Positions 2,860 through 48,179 of a DNA stretch of 64,000 nucleotides are shown piece by piece (the stretch's first letter is position 1; each line of letters opens with the position of its first letter). The translations under genes were made by a program, and so were the position numbers. Source of the stretch: Bacteroidota bacterium. Lineage in GTDB: Bacteria > Bacteroidota > Ignavibacteria > Kapaibacteriales > UBA961. Under the pieces are notes generated by a model. The model was given only the letters and a program-made list of their open reading frames with translations, had not been told where the DNA came from and ran no database searches. The stretch spans positions 4,916 to 68,915 of the forward strand of contig JAFDZU010000010.1 in NCBI GenBank assembly GCA_018266765.1, written 5' to 3'.

Positions 2860-5601
2860 ATGAACGCACGAATCATTATAACGTTAAAACTTCTTCTACT
2901 GGTGTTATTATTAACTCCTTTGGGAGTAAGTGCGCAAATTTTTACTAATAAAGGTGCGATTGTAACCGGTATGAACGGTAGTACAGTCTGGATAAATGGA
3001 ACATTATGTAATATTTCATCAGGACAAATTACCTTCAATGGTTCTTCTTTGTTACAAGTTAATGGGGAAATCCAAGTACAGTCAGGTGAACTTAAACTTT
3101 TGGATGCATCGAATGCTGTTGCAACTGAGAATTGTATCGTTTTTCCAAATTCTCAAGTATTGCGATATGGCAATGGCACATTAAATGTTTATAAACTTTA
3201 TACTAATAGAGGATTGTTAGATAATAAGGGAACAGTCGAAATTGGTAATACAACTTTTCCGGCAACAGTAAAACAGAATTTTCATAACGACTCAACCGCA
3301 ACTTTTCTTAATAACGGGATGGTGCGTTTTCTTGCTGATAGCGGACGATTTTCTAATTACCAAAGTAATATTACTAAAGTAAATAACGACGGTGGAATTA
3401 TCGAGATGAGAGGCGTATATAATCGCTTTACTGAAGGTAATGGCGCACAACCATTTCTTGGAGATAATAATTCTACTGCACTTGGTTCACGATGGAACTT
3501 TCGTATTGGTGGTTTAGTTCGGTACGCACATGCTACTGATTCTCAGATTGTTCAATCTCGATATTTCTATGACCTTGAAATGGATAATGTTGCTCGCAAA
3601 CTAATTCCAACGGATGTTTATGTAGGTAATGGCTATACTGTTACACCTACATCCGGCATTAGAAAATATGTAGGTACTTTCCATTATGATGGTGATAATA
3701 CTCAATATATTTATCCCGAAAATGGAGTAAATCCTCTCACAGACCGCTACTATAATTTAGATTTATTAGTAAGCAACCAATCTAAAAAAAGTAAAAAGCA
3801 TTTAGATACAAATCTCATAACTCGTCTTGATGCAGTTCTTACGAGTGATAGTTTAGCCCCACTGTATGTGGATGGACAAATGCACTTAGGAGATTTAGGT
3901 CTCGATACTTCTATCACGTTTGGTACAATAGATATACGAAATAATGGTTTGGTTTCTATGGGAACTCGTCCGGCAGTAGTTCATGCAAATGTAACTGTTA
4001 GTCCGGGTACGTTTCAATCTCCGATTGGTGCAGGTGATGTTCACGTAGCAAGTACTGCAACGTTACAACTTGCAGCGACTAATGGTGTTTTACGTTTAGC
4101 ACAAGCTACAAACCTTTTTGTAACCGGTGATTTTGTCAATAAAGGTAATGGAACAAATTTATTTGCAAATCCAACATCAACAGTTACTTTCAATGGTACA
4201 GCCGGGCAAGAAATAGAAAGAACTACTGATACCAATGGCTACGGAAATGTAACTACTATTCGTGAGAAAAATGCTCTTCGTGGTAATGTATTTATGACAG
4301 GAAATTTAAGAGTTGAAGCCGGAAATATTAATATGTTTGGCGATACTCTTACCATGATTGATTCTAAAAAATCAGCATCATACGTTGGTGGACTAGAAGA
4401 AGTTGTAGGAGCAATGAGAAGATTGAATCTTCCAACAGGAACTGAACCATTTACTTTTAATAATGTTAATACTACGGTTGCTTTTATCTCAGAAAAAGAA
4501 ACTGTACCACCTGATATGACATTCACTGTTACTCCAAAAGCAAGTCCAACTAATCCGGCACTTCAATTTATTGATACAACTGATGCTAACCGTAGGATAA
4601 TTTTGGCTTTTTCCGGCTCAAATGATTGGGAGGCAACTGTTCGAGCGGGCTATAAAGTGAATGAAATCGGTTCAAAAGTTGATGAAACTCACCTCGAATT
4701 TTTTGAAGCAACTGTAGATACTGCTAAAAATATTAATACCTCACTTTTGAATCCATCAAATCAATATTCGAGGAAATTAGCTACTGCTTCTTCTATGGGA
4801 TATGTAGAATTGTCGGGTGTTCGTCCTTTTAAGCCATTGTCTCCTTATCCTCCGCCATCATTATTTGCATCAGGAAATGATTTGTTATTACGGTATTCAC
4901 CCGGAAATCCCTATTTGATTCTCTCGGCACGAGTGTTGCTTGAAGGACCTTATCGGGATGGTACGATGGCATTTGATTTACGGACATTAAATCTAATAGA
5001 CTCAATTGCACCGAATATTGCTCCTTATAATTTAGATTCTAACCGTCTCTTTGAAAAAGTACGAATAATACCTGATTCGATTGTAGATTGGGCTACAGTT
5101 GAAATTCGTTCTCAATTGTCAGGTGGAACTCGTGTATTTCGTAATTGTTTTTTACGCTCTGATGGTATGTTAGTGGATTTAGACGGTAAAAGTGCAGTTA
5201 CTTTGCCAATTTCACAACCCGGAGATTATTATATTGTGGTACGTCACAGAAATCACCTTGCAGTTATGACTTCTGCTCCGGTTACATTAAAACAAAAAAC
5301 TACTAATCAAACAGGTCTTCAAACGGTTGACTTGTCTAATGAAAATATTGTTCTTGGTGGAGTTGATGCATTAAAAGCAATAGCTCGGCGACCAGATAAC
5401 TCGATAATTTATGGTATGCCGGCAGGTGACTATAATACTAATGGGGTTATTGATAATTTAGATTATGATAGAATTTGGGTATGGAGAGACTACGAAGGAT
5501 ATTGGAATGAAGATACTGATCTTAATGGAATTGTAACTACTAAAGATTTTAATGTAAGCTGGAACAACGCTAACATGAAAAAGAAAACAGTAGTTCCTTA
5601 A
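2860..5601 (+). CDS. Large secreted protein, probably beta-helix/pectate-lyase-like, with no recognisable T9SS tail.
   Basis: The ORF-track start at 2851 is TTG; ATG 2860 gives the signal peptide MNARIIITLKLLLLVLLLTPLGVSAQ. N/G/T-rich repeats (ITFNGSSLLQVNGEIQVQSG) are typical of beta-helical passengers. The C-terminus …NMKKKTVVP lacks a T9SS C-terminal domain (CTD). Confidence 0.6.
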   Translation: MNARIIITLKLLLLVLLLTPLGVSAQIFTNKGAIVTGMNGSTVWINGTLCNISSGQITFNGSSLLQVNGEIQVQSGELKLLDASNAVATENCIVFPNSQVLRYGNGTLNVYKLYTNRGLLDNKGTVEIGNTTFPATVKQNFHNDSTATFLNNGMVRFLADSGRFSNYQSNITKVNNDGGIIEMRGVYNRFTEGNGAQPFLGDNNSTALGSRWNFRIGGLVRYAHATDSQIVQSRYFYDLEMDNVARKLIPTDVYVGNGYTVTPTSGIRKYVGTFHYDGDNTQYIYPENGVNPLTDRYYNLDLLVSNQSKKSKKHLDTNLITRLDAVLTSDSLAPLYVDGQMHLGDLGLDTSITFGTIDIRNNGLVSMGTRPAVVHANVTVSPGTFQSPIGAGDVHVASTATLQLAATNGVLRLAQATNLFVTGDFVNKGNGTNLFANPTSTVTFNGTAGQEIERTTDTNGYGNVTTIREKNALRGNVFMTGNLRVEAGNINMFGDTLTMIDSKKSASYVGGLEEVVGAMRRLNLPTGTEPFTFNNVNTTVAFISEKETVPPDMTFTVTPKASPTNPALQFIDTTDANRRIILAFSGSNDWEATVRAGYKVNEIGSKVDETHLEFFEATVDTAKNINTSLLNPSNQYSRKLATASSMGYVELSGVRPFKPLSPYPPPSLFASGNDLLLRYSPGNPYLILSARVLLEGPYRDGTMAFDLRTLNLIDSIAPNIAPYNLDSNRLFEKVRIIPDSIVDWATVEIRSQLSGGTRVFRNCFLRSDGMLVDLDGKSAVTLPISQPGDYYIVVRHRNHLAVMTSAPVTLKQKTTNQTGLQTVDLSNENIVLGGVDALKAIARRPDNSIIYGMPAGDYNTNGVIDNLDYDRIWVWRDYEGYWNEDTDLNGIVTTKDFNVSWNNANMKKKTVVP

Positions 5602-40819: not shown

Positions 40820-42394
40820 TTAATGACTAACAATTATTGGTTTCATAATAGTCCCTTTTAAAGAGTGAATAACCGCAAAGTACATTCCACTTGCCAAGTG
40901 GGTAGCATCAATCTCAGCTTTACTGTTAATTACTTGCTGATTTGCGACTTCCATACCTATACTATTCATAATATGTAGCGATGTACCGTTTTCTATCCCC
41001 GATATTGTTACGGTTGTTGTTGTTGGGGTTGGATAGACAGAGATATTGTCATTAGGAATTAGTACTTGCTCCAAAACCCCTGTTGCTCTTGGGCGAAGGC
41101 GTGTGATTTGTATAGATGTTTCTTGTTCTTTCCCGTAAACTATACTGTTACAAACAAATACTACATCTCCATTTGGTGCTTCAGCAAAACTCATAATTCT
41201 ATTCATAAGATTTTTATCTCCTGTTGTATAATACCAATCACATTCACCTTCATCATTCAATTTTGCAATAATACCTAAATGAGCATCTGAATAATTAATT
41301 GAGCCGTCATCTTTAAAAGAATAGATTTCACCGGTAATAAAAAAACCGCCCGTATTTCCTTTTGTAATTTCAAAATAAAAGAATTTAAGGTTTTTTAATA
41401 GTTCAGGTTGTTTTTTCCATAATAAGTTTCCTTTAGTATCATATTTTGACGTAATAAATGTTCTATCACTGCTACCTTGCAAGATAAAATATGACCCATC
41501 AGTATTGATTGCAACATCTGCTTCATTTTCCGTATGAATGACTAAGCGATTTATAAATTCAAATTCATTTGTGTATCGAAGTAACGTAACACTCCTTGCA
41601 GTATCTAAAGGAAACAACCCCGAATTTACTATGGTAAATGAAGCACTATTATACGGTAATATGCCTCGTATTCTATTATACATATCCTTTTTATATTCAT
41701 TATTGAACGAAAGTGTATTCTGTATTTTTGTAAACGAAGTATCAATCGAGAAAATCGAAATGCTGTCGGATTTCTCTCTATTTACATACACTCTTGTGTC
41801 AGGAAAAATAGTATAAACAGGTCCATGAGGAAGTGACTTTGGTAAAAGGGTACGAGTTGATTTTTCTTCCTTGACAGTTCCATCCGGAGAAATAATGAAT
41901 CTAATTGGATATGTGTCATAAAACCGAAATTGGTCTATCTTTCCTTCGTAGCCATAGACAAGAATATCACCATTGGTAAGTTCCGAAATATTCTCAAATC
42001 GTATATAATACTTTGAGGTATCTTCAGGAAAATCTTCAGAAAATTTCCTGTTGATTGTCCATTCTATCGCACCACTACCATTAATTTTTGTAAGTAATCC
42101 CCCCCTATTATAGATATGGCTAGCATAATAGAAACTGCCATCAGAAGCCGCAAAAAAGTGATTGGTCGTTATATCATGCCACTCCGGCTTATACACTAAC
42201 TTTTGCCAAACAGAATCAACTTCTCCACCTATTGTTGTTTTGAAGACATTGTTACTCAGAATACGAGAACCGCTTTTACTTTTGTGAATGTTTGGAGCTA
42301 ATTCTTGGGCTCCCAATGAATGGATGCTGTTATTAATATCTACCGTTAGAGAAGATAACAGTACAACCAAAAAAATTACAATATTATTTTTCAT
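40820..42394 (-). CDS. Secreted protein with a T9SS C-terminal sorting domain.
   Basis: Signal peptide MKNNIVIFLVVLLSSLTV. C-terminus …ISVYPTPTTTTVTISGIENGTSLHIMNSIGMEVANQ…ASGMYFAVIHSLKGTIMKPIIVSH is a Por_Secre_tail pattern. Confidence 0.65.
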   Translation of the reverse strand: MKNNIVIFLVVLLSSLTVDINNSIHSLGAQELAPNIHKSKSGSRILSNNVFKTTIGGEVDSVWQKLVYKPEWHDITTNHFFAASDGSFYYASHIYNRGGLLTKINGSGAIEWTINRKFSEDFPEDTSKYYIRFENISELTNGDILVYGYEGKIDQFRFYDTYPIRFIISPDGTVKEEKSTRTLLPKSLPHGPVYTIFPDTRVYVNREKSDSISIFSIDTSFTKIQNTLSFNNEYKKDMYNRIRGILPYNSASFTIVNSGLFPLDTARSVTLLRYTNEFEFINRLVIHTENEADVAINTDGSYFILQGSSDRTFITSKYDTKGNLLWKKQPELLKNLKFFYFEITKGNTGGFFITGEIYSFKDDGSINYSDAHLGIIAKLNDEGECDWYYTTGDKNLMNRIMSFAEAPNGDVVFVCNSIVYGKEQETSIQITRLRPRATGVLEQVLIPNDNISVYPTPTTTTVTISGIENGTSLHIMNSIGMEVANQQVINSKAEIDATHLASGMYFAVIHSLKGTIMKPIIVSH

Positions 42395-42624: not shown

Positions 42625-43488
42625 TTATTCCGGGCAGCTTAGAGAATAACAGCCGGTACGATGAACTATAGTACATCCGTCCGGAGCGGTAAATGAAGAA
42701 AACCCGGTACAAGATGTAGAGAAACCGTAAGATGTAGTTGTAGGATTACAAGTACGAACCTCTCCGGTTGAAACATCATAACACATCTGCCAAGTTTTGA
42801 TACAACATTTTGAAGATTCACAAGCCATCCTCCAAGTTCCGGCAAATGGGGATCCTGTTGATGATGTTAATTCAAGGAATTCATAACATTCAGCGGAATA
42901 TGATCGTACCACTGCAAAGCCAGAGCCGGACGCACATCCTGTTGAGCCGAGGCAATCATAGCTACTATTTCCTTGTCGAATATAATTTTTAAAAAAGTGT
43001 TTAGCTGCAAGAATGTGTCCATAAGGCCAGATAGATTCAGATATACTCTTCCATGTAGCTTTTTCAGCAGGAGTACCATTAATGGCTATGTTCTTAAAGT
43101 AGTCATAACAAGGATTAGCTATCTGATACTGATTGACTTCGACTTCATACGTAGTACCACACCATCTATACCTATATCCAAAACATACTTGACAGCCGAC
43201 AGATAAACCATCAATTGGTATATAGACAGTTGTACAAAGATCAGTATTAAGTGGAGAAGAATTTACTTGCGTCCAGGTAGTCCATGTACATCCAACTGTT
43301 GCAGGTCCACAGTCTTCTCCCTTTGCATTAGGAGAATAACTTAATGAAGAAATAAAGACTATAAGAAGTGCAAGCCAAATGGCTTTTCCTCCTAACTCTC
43401 TATGTAAACAAGAGGTTAAATTGCGTGGACTCGGGGGGGGGGGGGACAGTAACTGCATTCCACATATAAGCGGAACTACGGCGAACAT
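42625..43488 (-). CDS. Cysteine-rich secreted protein of unknown function, with a homopolymeric tract in its 5' coding region.
   Basis: ATG at 43488. Hydrophobic signal-like segment KAIWLALLIVFISSLSYSPNA, preceded by a 33-aa extension containing SPPPPSP, which is encoded by the G13/C13 tract. The mature part has ~19 Cys (DCGP, GCTW, KCCIK, SCPE…). No family recognised. Confidence 0.55.
   Translation of the reverse strand: MFAVVPLICGMQLLSPPPPSPRNLTSCLHRELGGKAIWLALLIVFISSLSYSPNAKGEDCGPATVGCTWTTWTQVNSSPLNTDLCTTVYIPIDGLSVGCQVCFGYRYRWCGTTYEVEVNQYQIANPCYDYFKNIAINGTPAEKATWKSISESIWPYGHILAAKHFFKNYIRQGNSSYDCLGSTGCASGSGFAVVRSYSAECYEFLELTSSTGSPFAGTWRMACESSKCCIKTWQMCYDVSTGEVRTCNPTTTSYGFSTSCTGFSSFTAPDGCTIVHRTGCYSLSCPE
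43433..43445 (-). repeat. Homopolymeric G13 tract (C13 on the coding strand). A candidate slipped-strand phase-variation switch.
   Basis: tcGGGGGGGGGGGGGacagt lies 14 codons into the ORF that starts at 43488. A length of 13 keeps the frame; +/-1 leads to a stop within ~10-15 codons. Confidence 0.75.
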
Positions 43489-43823
43489 TAGGGAGAAATT
43501 GCATAAAGCACTCCATAAATAATTAGTTAAAAAATAATACTATATTTATGTTAGGAAAACAATTCCAACAGACAACCCAAATTACTATTTAATTTTATTA
43601 CATGCAAGACCTTTGCTTAATAAAATTAATTATTCCAAAATGTTATTATCGGTTAAATATTTTCTGATTATTTAATTTTTGTTTAATTTGCAAGTAGGGT
43701 AGTGATAGGACGACCCTTACTCACAAAAAACGACGTTATCCTTCACGCGCTTAATTCTATATAAACTATTGATTTAATAATTTCGCTGTTACCGTGAGTT
43801 ATACAGCACAAGGAGAAATTATT

Positions 43824-47024: not shown

Positions 47025-47576
47025 CTAATGGATTCTTAGTACTCGTTTTTTCAATAGTTTATCTGCTATCCAAAGTAAGGCAACTGAACAAAGCAAAAGT
47101 ATGAGTGAACTGAAGCTTTTTATGGGTAGAAATGATGCAAGAGTCATAAAAAAATCTGTAATAGAATGCCCGGATGTCACCAACCAATCAGAATAAGAGT
47201 GTATGATCAAATGAACTTCTGATGGTTTTGATTCAGCAGACTGGTGTTGCGGAATTGATGAAATCAATATCCCTAAACTTATGATTATGGATGCGGCTAC
47301 GAACCATTTCAGGCGGAATATTTCTAGATTTGAAAGTTTGAGATTCGCTTTTGGTAATGGCTCAGTCACAACTGTATTCATTAATTTTAATGAAAATTGA
47401 TGTGATGGCTCGAATATAGGACTACGTTCGAGAGTTTCTGTACATTCCTTGTGAAAATCTACTTCGGCACGGCATGTGGCACATTCTCGAAGATGAACTT
47501 CAATACGCTTCGCTTCACCTAGTTGAGCGGTGTTGTCAATATACTCGAAAATCTGTTCAAGCGATAAATGTTTCAT
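47025..47576 (-). CDS. Membrane anti-sigma factor (zinc-finger-type anti-sigma domain plus a single TM).
   Basis: Directly downstream of the ECF sigma gene on the same strand. N-terminal HLRECATCRAEVDFHKEC (HxxxCxxC-like). TM WFVAASIIISLGILISSIP. Confidence 0.6.
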   Translation of the reverse strand: MKHLSLEQIFEYIDNTAQLGEAKRIEVHLRECATCRAEVDFHKECTETLERSPIFEPSHQFSLKLMNTVVTEPLPKANLKLSNLEIFRLKWFVAASIIISLGILISSIPQHQSAESKPSEVHLIIHSYSDWLVTSGHSITDFFMTLASFLPIKSFSSLILLLCSVALLWIADKLLKKRVLRIH

Positions 47577-47603
47577 GATTCTATTTTTAAAATTTTAATT
47601 TAC

Positions 47604-48179
47604 TTACGTGAAATTAACCTTTTCAGGTAAGCGACGTGAAATAGCTTCACGAAGCATTAACCTACCACGAAAAAGACGTGTTTTTACAGTCCCGAGTGGC
47701 ATTCCGGTAATAGCTGTTATCTCGTCATACCGCATTTGCTGAACGAAAAAAAGAGTTAAAACTGACGAATACTCCACCGGTAAACGTTCTATTTCTCGGT
47801 AAATAACATTATTGTCTTCAGACTCTTCCATGAGTTCATCCGGTGAAGTTGCTTTAGATGCTATTTGCAGTTCAACGTTATTTATATCCTCACCCAGAGA
47901 TGTAAATGAAATATTACCTCTTTTTTCGAGAGCAGACGCGCAAACATTATAGACGATTCGGTAGAACCACGTAGCAAAATTTGCCTTTCCTTCGAAACTT
48001 CCAAGCGACCGAAACACCCGCAAAAAAGCATCCTGTAATGCTTCTTCGGCATCCTCACGGTTTTTCAGCATTCTCATTGCCAGTGTCATTGCTTTTGACT
48101 GATGACGATCAACAAGTATCGAAAATGCTCGGCGGTCACCCCTAAGGATTTTTTGAATTATTTCGTATTCTTTTATCAT
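47604..48179 (-). CDS. ECF-type RNA polymerase sigma factor.
   Basis: Region 2 FSILVDRHQSKAMTLAMRMLKNREDAEEALQDAFLRVF. Region 4 RYDEITAITGMPLGTVKTRLFRGRLMLRE. Confidence 0.8.
   Translation of the reverse strand: MIKEYEIIQKILRGDRRAFSILVDRHQSKAMTLAMRMLKNREDAEEALQDAFLRVFRSLGSFEGKANFATWFYRIVYNVCASALEKRGNISFTSLGEDINNVELQIASKATSPDELMEESEDNNVIYREIERLPVEYSSVLTLFFVQQMRYDEITAITGMPLGTVKTRLFRGRLMLREAISRRLPEKVNFT

Follow-up and report, generated by a model that had tools for sequence, protein, structure and literature searches.

The presence of a long G/C homopolymer within the 5' part of a gene for a cysteine-rich secreted protein raises the question of what such a run does there and whether a change in its length would change the expression of the gene. 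In the window (the whole 64-kb stretch of DNA that was analysed, with a GC content of 35.8%), the run is a G13 on the forward strand at 43433-43445 with C and A as its flanks, and reads as C13 on the coding (minus) strand, 43433..43445. It supplies proline codons in both relevant frames, as V-PPPP-E in the frame of the conserved start codon (frame A) and as S-PPPP-S in the frame of the protein body. The initial annotation had proposed the run as a candidate slipped-strand mispairing switch, with the ORF intact at 13 residues and soon stopped at 12 or 14. The results described here retained the coding tract whose length re-phases the ORF and replaced the plain ON and OFF lengths by a different set of states, and we give a probability of about one half to the reading that C13 is a slippage-driven, three-level translational phase switch in the leader of the secreted protein.

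The C13 tract is exceptional in the window

The remaining G/C runs in the 64-kb window were all of 7 bases or less (one C7, one G6 and nine of length 5), and the number of runs of 13 or more bases calculated from the base frequencies is ~3e-5 in 64 kb. The homopolymer count proposed in the initial annotation, made here within the window, thus bore out its claim that the tract is exceptional among G/C runs, the next-longest being of 7 bases. When the sequences fetched for comparison were included (~120 kb), all G/C runs of 8 or more bases were found at this one leader position. The C13 tract is real and lies far beyond chance, and it has the properties of a hypermutable repeat, which is an uninterrupted G/C run of ~7-8 bases or more that is unexpected from composition. 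A G/C run of 13 bases cannot be mutationally inert because of slipped-strand mispairing. The origin of the run as a poly-G sequencing or read-end artefact was considered and rejected, as it is internal to the contigs in three assemblies and both of its flanks align to tract-free homologues. A need for polyproline at the protein level is likewise an unlikely cause. Of the proline codons in the window, CCC is the rarest, at only 8.8%, and the probability of four consecutive CCC codons from this usage is ~6e-5; therefore, the run is not accounted for by the need for prolines.

The conserved start codon lies one base out of phase with the protein body

The 287-aa ORF (42625..43488, minus strand) comprises a leader, a signal-peptide core and a cysteine-rich mature domain of ~230 aa. 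At 13 residues it is open and reads through the run as ...MQLLSPPPPSPRNL..., as had been noted, and the run begins 14 codons after ATG 43488 and upstream of the only hydrophobic segment of the protein. This segment is the signal-peptide core AIWLALLIVFISSLS (residues 36-50; 43339..43383, minus strand), and the conserved SYSPNAKG follows it. The assignment of ATG 43488 (43486..43488) as the start codon did not survive comparison, as this body-frame ATG is unconserved, being ATA in L004, the closest homologue that lacks the tract, which also has a downstream stop in that frame. The start codon of the family is ATG 43504 (43502..43504, minus strand), which lies in frame A and is conserved in nucleotide and peptide alignments with L004, L006, L007, P0019 and P0029; the peptide read from it, MQFLPNVRRSSA..., matches P0019, P0029, P0002 and P0009. 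A Shine-Dalgarno-like GGAG core is located at 43511..43514, 6 nt upstream of ATG 43504, and was found invariant or near-invariant in all cassettes (GGAGTG / GAGGTG). Because SD-like cores precede 10 of the 42 ORFs of the window (24%) vs 7% in the background, the GGAG ahead of ATG 43504 is meaningful. No SD-like core was found before ATG 43488 or before ATG 43458 (43456..43458), which is the start codon of the NCBI annotation (277 aa, MBS1536573.1). The latter ATG is also in the body frame at C13, and it results from a reading of the conserved Asn-Ala codons AAT-GCx that is shifted by one base.

The long leader has, in one subfamily, the consensus MQ(F/Y)LPxxRRSSAxMQNAV..SPAKxTGIFSYxxKKLGGKAxWLxLL..SLSYSPxAKGQ. 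Its first part, MQFLPNVRRSSAYMWNAVTV, is encoded from ATG 43504 up to the tract and is in frame A, whereas the second part (..TSCLHRELGGKAIWLALL..) is in the body frame, with C13 between them and one base off. The predicted precursor peptides at the frame junction are ...AVTVPPPPSPR vs MQLLSPPPPSPR. Leaders that are free of the tract read CACCCGCCAAG or similar at this position, and the tract-free homologues L004, L006, L007 and P0029 read GTATCACCCGCCAAG or similar, in frame. At C13, translation from the conserved start meets a dead end after 34 codons (43400..43504, minus strand; MQFLPNVRRSSAYMWNAVTVPPPPESTQFNLLFT) at the stop TAG 43402-43400. With the conserved start out of phase, these genes have been annotated from arbitrary codons, at lengths of 277, 287, 142 and 112 aa.

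The initial annotation had pointed to an AGGAGG just downstream of the tract, and had named a translation start beyond the tract as the finding that would turn the tract into 5'-UTR. The AGGAGG is present (43393-43388; 43388..43393 on the minus strand), and it consists of the Leu-Gly-Gly codons (TTA-GGA-GGA) of the invariant leader motif (K/R)(K/E)LGGK, with no conserved start after it: the codon 7 nt past it is ATT, GCA, ATA, CTA or GTA among the copies. A translation start 3' of the tract was rejected on these grounds. Between the position of the tract and the hydrophobic core, in-frame starts are absent from all homologues, and in no copy was any start codon found; thus the run is coding sequence and translation must cross it, as had been claimed. 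The proposed signal-peptide check with alternative starts showed that every start variant keeps the same hydrophobic core together with a positively charged n-region.

The frame table and the frame walk confirmed that changes of one base in either direction shift the frame of this translated 5' part and re-phase the ORF. From ATG 43488, C12 leads to a stop after 23 codons and C14 to a stop after 29, so the early stops at these lengths, worked out earlier by hand, were reproduced, as was the entry of ATG 43465 into the main frame at C12. C12 also brings ATG 43516 and ATG 43504 into frame; because this includes the conserved start, C12 is not an OFF state. Three states can be told apart. When the run is of 3n bases (C9, C12, C15), ATG 43504 is in phase together with the second conserved Met of the leader (M14, 43463..43465, frame A, which is in the body phase only at these lengths), and a precursor with the full leader of about 292 aa is encoded. 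With 3n+1 bases (C10, C13, C16), only ATG 43488 and ATG 43458 are in phase and the product has 287 or 277 aa, and with 3n+2 bases (C11, C14, C17) there is no in-phase start and no full-length ORF. Two of the three phases therefore retain a full-length ORF initiated at ATG, and the precursor encoded at C12 or C15 (292/293 aa) aligns throughout with the homologues. The pN/pS values of the first 18 codons were 0.59, 0.76 and 0.64 in the three frames, and the frame in use was not distinguishable from substitutions; the substitution test is uninformative upstream of the tract because the 5' region is conserved at the nucleotide level.

A three-level switch is proposed

On this arrangement of frames, the run would join an upstream frame that is led by GGAG and ATG 43504 to a downstream frame that carries the signal-peptide core and the mature domain, and the number of C residues would set which starts are in phase with the body. 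Replication slippage at a G/C run of 13 bases would move cells among the three states, and the assembled C13 state would be the one in which the conserved start is disconnected. The leader would be removed with the signal peptide and the same mature protein would be released from all ON states. The last point is suggested by family members with plain short signal peptides, in which the mature domain begins at the equivalent point, just before the first conserved Cys; an identical mature product of all ON variants is thus probable, and if so the switch would set the amount and not the product. Slippage at a useful rate, weak initiation at the alternate ATGs and an adaptive value of the switching are inferred.

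Run length and phase are constant among strains and cassettes

The length of the run was C13 in the NCBI MAG, in the Logan assembly SRR24111707 and in L005 from SRR18313621, that is, in three assemblies and two strains that are ~4% apart. The SRR24111707 copy is 100% identical to the MAG over 10.9 kb and possibly represents the same material, and L005 comes from the second strain (95.8% identity over 8.3 kb). The length heterogeneity that the initial annotation had proposed to look for was accordingly not seen in these consensus sequences, in which minority lengths within a population are invisible. No product of another tract length was found in the 90% cluster of the protein, protein- and DNA-pattern scans of JGI metagenome contigs gave no further copy and no other tract length, with 0 hits to the tract flanks, a scan of viral contigs for the leader gave no other tract length, and an exact-protein look-up of the adjacent 179-aa gene gave no further contig.

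The leader is common to genes with different mature domains. The MAG with the locus-tag prefix JST20, which is the one containing the window, has at least three genes with this leader, two of them with a C run at the same site. The leader genes besides that of the window include JST20_07150 (P0028) and JST20_07140 (P0026), the latter being annotated from just before KKLGGK. JST20_07150, recovered also as L013 from the same run as L001, carries C8 at the leader site, a length that is the same in two assemblies. A third cassette (L012), from another organism in a JGI metagenome, carries C7, and a second strain of this gene (P0027) has the same SPPS reading. Exactly 72 nt separate the conserved ATG from the GAG after the run in every tract-bearing copy, vs 78 nt in the tract-free ones. 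In the window, L005, L012 and L013, the run is read in frame A as ...CCC CCC GAG TC, with the body lying in the +1 frame. The tract-bearing copies are each one base too long, the in-phase lengths being 12 for C13, 6 for the C7 of L012 and 7 for the C8 of L013, and the upstream differences of L012 and L013 are only indels in multiples of a codon. By nucleotide register, the extra base may not belong to the run itself and would then be located 10-12 nt 3' of it. The chance of all three cassettes being at +1 is 1/27, or 1/8 if only out-of-phase states were sampled; the uniform +1 phase is therefore suggestive and not significant, and random ON/OFF flipping would predict mixed phases. To judge from the sequences, the constant length and phase look like a maintained state and not like free flipping, which counts against the switch. 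This constancy across strains and paralogues raised two alternatives, namely recoding at the run and a fixed arrangement.

In the first, the state with one C in excess would be the normal one and the recoding would be programmed: ribosomes that start at ATG 43504 would shift +1 on CCC_CCC_C/G by slippage of peptidyl-tRNAPro as they stall on polyproline, or RNA polymerase would drop one C, and leader and body would be joined with the DNA left as it is. We regard this as unlikely, while it has several observations on its side. The frame transition is conserved in the three distinct cassettes (all exactly +1 with 72 nt from ATG to GAG, at C13, C13, C7 and C8), the length is identical in strains ~4% apart, and the ATG, the GGAG core and the MQxLP..RSSA motif are kept upstream. 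Frame A moreover places slippery codons in the P site, reading CCC CCC (CCC CCC) GAG, and CC[C/U]-[C/U] is a documented +1 slippery motif (PMC4519876). The usual stimulators of such a shift are missing, however: the 0-frame codon after the run is GAG, which at 10.2 per 1000 codons is not rare, and there is no stop; no SD-like core lies just 5' of the run, and the local mRNA fold at the run is unremarkable (z = -1.4, single-sequence). The measured shifting on CCC-C is ~1% or less, and a genome-wide survey found transcription insertions at homopolymers mainly at A and T runs (PMC5574713). The runs of L012 and L013 are of only 7-8 bases, and the three cassettes may share an inherited arrangement, with an all +1 outcome by chance at only 1/27 or 1/8. 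The narrower proposition that these leaders, which occur on several cysteine-rich secreted proteins that are unrelated to one another and come from uncultured Bacteroidota/Ignavibacteriota, form a clade with an obligatory, conserved +1 transition at poly-C, in which a precursor from the conserved start would need tRNAPro slippage or loss of a C in transcription, appears a shade less probable still than either of the two alternatives.

In the second alternative, an old one-base frameshift is tolerated, and a body-frame ATG or TTG just upstream of the run provides for initiation and for a usable signal peptide; the ATG-led frame further upstream would be a relic or a small upstream ORF, and the C run a mutational by-product that encodes prolines. 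This we also think doubtful, marginally more so than programmed recoding. Body-frame starts do exist upstream of the run, at 43458/43488 in the window, ATG 3001 in L012 and TTG 65/74 in L013, and phase and length are alike in all samples. The conserved AAT-G codons yield the body-frame ATG automatically, some members have shorter leaders (P0008 from M14, and P0026 as noted above), all start variants keep the hydrophobic core and positive n-region, and conservation of the 5' region is seen at the nucleotide level regardless of frame. Against it, a G/C run that is not mutationally inert and that repeats the rarest proline codon four times would have to be a by-product, L013 has no body-frame ATG upstream of the core but TTG only, and three diverged cassettes have kept the ATG, its GGAG and 24 codons of open frame. 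The three-level switch thus remains the reading that we prefer at the probability given above.

Purifying selection on the gene body

The two strains differ in the gene body by 13 nonsynonymous vs 19 synonymous changes (pN/pS 0.20; binomial p against neutrality = 9e-6), a pN/pS similar to that of three neighbour genes (0.21-0.31), the other two being at 0.06-0.08. The low value of the body indicates that the gene is under purifying selection while carrying the run, and so is in use. Decay of the gene, with the run as a frameshift hot spot in a pseudogene, was considered in view of damaged copies: L005 carries TGT->TGA at codon 85, and the family is often disrupted elsewhere, the L006 homologue being broken by a frameshift at a G7 run and a 5-nt duplication and L003 being without its 5' third. 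Such decay is very improbable given the purifying selection between the strains, the 287-aa ORF that is open in the window, and a confident AlphaFold model in which all cysteines of the family are conserved. It is just as hard to credit that the length was miscalled and that the true run is 12 in an ordinary in-frame gene, since, although long G/C runs are error-prone in short reads and the nanH3 study remarks on the difficulty that assemblies have with them (bioRxiv 10.1101/2020.09.16.300947), all three assemblies, which cover two strains and at least two read sets, have 13, the C7 and C8 runs are short enough for reliable reading and have the same +1 offset, and the flanks on both sides align to tract-free homologues.

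The protein belongs to a secreted cysteine-rich family next to type IX cargo

The 287-aa protein gave no Pfam match at E <= 0.1, and no solved structural relative of its AlphaFold model was found. The number of relatives depended on the method, with 3 recovered by word-indexed search vs 21 by exhaustive HMMER search; word-indexed profile searches with the leader and full-length profiles also recovered few relatives. Together, these relatives define a cysteine-rich domain of ~230 aa behind a signal peptide. The downstream gene (40820..42394, minus strand) encodes a 524-aa protein with a type IX secretion C-terminal sorting domain (PF18962 at 2e-9), and its synteny with the cysteine-rich gene extends to L005 (93% identity), L003 (62%) and L006 (53%). 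The sorting domain (PF18962, Por_Secre_tail) was not found in the 287-aa protein itself. The signal-peptide core, the type IX cargo neighbours and the at least three leader genes in the MAG together point to a surface or secreted product encoded in a gene family that shares the repeat.

Comparison with known systems

The proposed switch would be of a known kind, as judged by analogy with licA, pilC, opa and nanH3, and the uniform +1 offset is its unusual part. In pilC1/pilC2 of Neisseria gonorrhoeae, a poly-G is located in the signal-peptide coding region (PMC5354566, PMC13017665), so that, like here, one-base changes in a G/C homopolymer of the export-signal region shift the frame. Unlike in the present locus, the switching of pilC has been demonstrated experimentally and the tract length differs among pilC variants, whereas no such difference was seen here; furthermore, two of the three phases keep a start here, and the organism is an uncultured environmental bacterium of the FCB group. 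The opa genes of Neisseria form a family with CTCTT repeats in the leader-peptide region (PMC5354566), which resembles the occurrence of several genes in one genome with a conserved 5' leader and an embedded repeat; the opa repeat is a pentamer and the opa copies are in different phases, while a homopolymer in one phase was found here. The closest likeness in the number of states is to licA (lic1) of Haemophilus influenzae, in which a CAAT repeat and three start codons in two of the three frames are known (PMC2212159): in both cases the repeat number aligns alternative starts with the ORF and more than two expression states result or would result. The licA repeat is a tetranucleotide, however, its enzyme is cytoplasmic, and its switching has been measured at ~1e-2 to 1e-3 per generation. 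The nanH3 gene of Gardnerella carries, ~100 bases into its ORF and directly behind the signal-peptide region, a poly-C of 8-14 residues (bioRxiv 10.1101/2020.09.16.300947). It thus shares with the present gene a poly-C beside the signal-peptide region ~100 nt into the ORF and annotated starts that shift with its length; it differs in that its run follows the signal peptide, so that an out-of-frame length means truncation, and in that its lengths vary within and between strains.

As regards recoding, +1 shifting on CC[C/U]-[C/U] amounts to at most 1% in E. coli, with m1G37 and EF-P suppressing it, and CCC-G also shifts with the UGG isoacceptor (PMC4519876). The leader described here resembles such tRNAPro shifting and prfB-type +1 sites in its CCC codons followed by C or G and in its conserved +1 frame relation, and differs from programmed +1 sites such as prfB in lacking a stop or hungry codon as well as an SD-like stimulator upstream. 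If the uniform +1 offset is the result of recoding and not of sampling, proline-codon slippage would have a new natural use here, and an obligatory +1 transition would couple the expression of the family to EF-P, tRNA modification or the state of the polymerase, instead of or besides DNA slippage.

If the three-level switch is true, a homopolymer switch embedded in a leader is present in a secreted-protein family of an environmental, uncultured FCB-group bacterium. To our knowledge, nearly all known contingency genes driven by repeats are those of host-adapted pathogens; the switch would mean that repeat-driven switching operates in free-living communities too. It would also flag a protein family that has no solved relative and lies beside type IX cargo as one that needs adjustment up or down by the cell.

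Features upstream of the leader

The 5' region shows ~75-80% nucleotide identity between genes whose proteins share 44%, and small hairpins were predicted in it. The only Rfam hit was a chance match (E = 0.095, below the gathering score), and no known RNA element was thus found there. A regulatory upstream ORF with a conserved stop was rejected, as the stop of frame A comes after 34 codons in one cassette, 54 in another and >50 in the third. A sigma-70-like promoter match is located within the conserved upstream block at 43539..43568 on the minus strand (TTGGAA, 18 nt spacer, TATAGT); it is a consensus match only, and the number of such matches in the region was not above the shuffled expectation. 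The same block contains a conserved dyad, CTGTTGGAA-ttgtt-TTCCTAACA (43548..43571, minus strand), that can form a hairpin and has compensatory changes in L004, L006 and L007, and this dyad may be an operator or an RNA stem.

Conservation of the 5′ region in leader-bearing genes

From the promoter-proximal region to ~170 nt into the gene, the cysteine-rich gene and its tract-free homologues were found to be ~75–80% identical in nucleotide sequence, whereas their mature proteins share only 44% identity. This conserved 5′ region spans 43330–43580 on the minus strand of the window, and it corresponds to 5925–6160 in L004, 3925–4160 in L006 and 70–300 in L007. Several small hairpins were predicted in it by RNAalifold, including a dyad at 43571–43548 on the minus strand with compensatory changes, a GGAG...CUCC pairing around the start codon, and GUUCCGC/GUGGAAU with one compensatory pair. 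The region may serve as a conserved regulatory 5′ cassette. In the tract-free homologues, a 13-nt tandem repeat, GTTGAAATCGTGC, is present in 2–5 copies ~100 nt upstream of the start (~5815–5875 in L004, ~3851–3890 in L006, 1–35 in L007 and ~1560–1595 in L008). Searching the window for this repeat with up to 3 mismatches allowed returned 0 matches.

The loss of a start codon was seen in another leader-bearing copy, L011 (1–120), in which the first conserved ATG is gone, with TATTAGCAA in place of TTTATGCAA, and the protein begins at the second Met. The nucleotides that are no longer translated in L011 are still nearly identical to those of the other copies, and P0029, from a sister strain of L011, retains the first ATG.

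Further leader genes in the same MAG

At least two further leader-bearing genes, MBS1537505.1 (JST20_07140) and MBS1537507.1 (JST20_07150), were found in the MAG from which the window comes; both lie on one 18.7-kb contig, two locus tags apart. The annotated start of JST20_07140 is just before the KKLGGK motif of the leader, and JST20_07150 carries a C8 run (L013 1–560). The Logan contig L013 starts exactly at this conserved leader; such a contig end would be expected if the leader acted as a repeat and interrupted assembly.

Disruption of family members and strain differences

Members of the cysteine-rich protein family are often disrupted. The homologue in L006 (4001–4889; Ignavibacteriae MAG GCA_016197185.1) has an intact, in-frame leader, but two lesions break up its body: a frameshift at a G7 run (4236–4242) and, near 4790, a tandem duplication of the 5 nt AGGAC. 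The L003 homologue (1–735) is without the first ~90 codons. In the second strain, L005, codon 85 of the cysteine-rich gene (1539–2361) is changed from TGT to TGA and is directly followed by a cluster of substitutions at codons ~85–105, where the sequence resembles the L003 homologue (IPINGI); the cluster may be a recombination patch.

Neighbouring genes

The second-longest G/C run of the window (42099–42105, C7 on the plus strand and G7 on the coding strand) lies in frame inside the 5′ third of the adjacent gene for a 524-aa type IX secretion cargo protein, and it is found in strain L005 too (2922–2928). Located ~3.5 kb from the locus, at 47025–48179 on the minus strand, a gene for an ECF-type sigma factor (Sigma70_r2/r4_2) is paired with one for a zf-HC2 anti-sigma factor.
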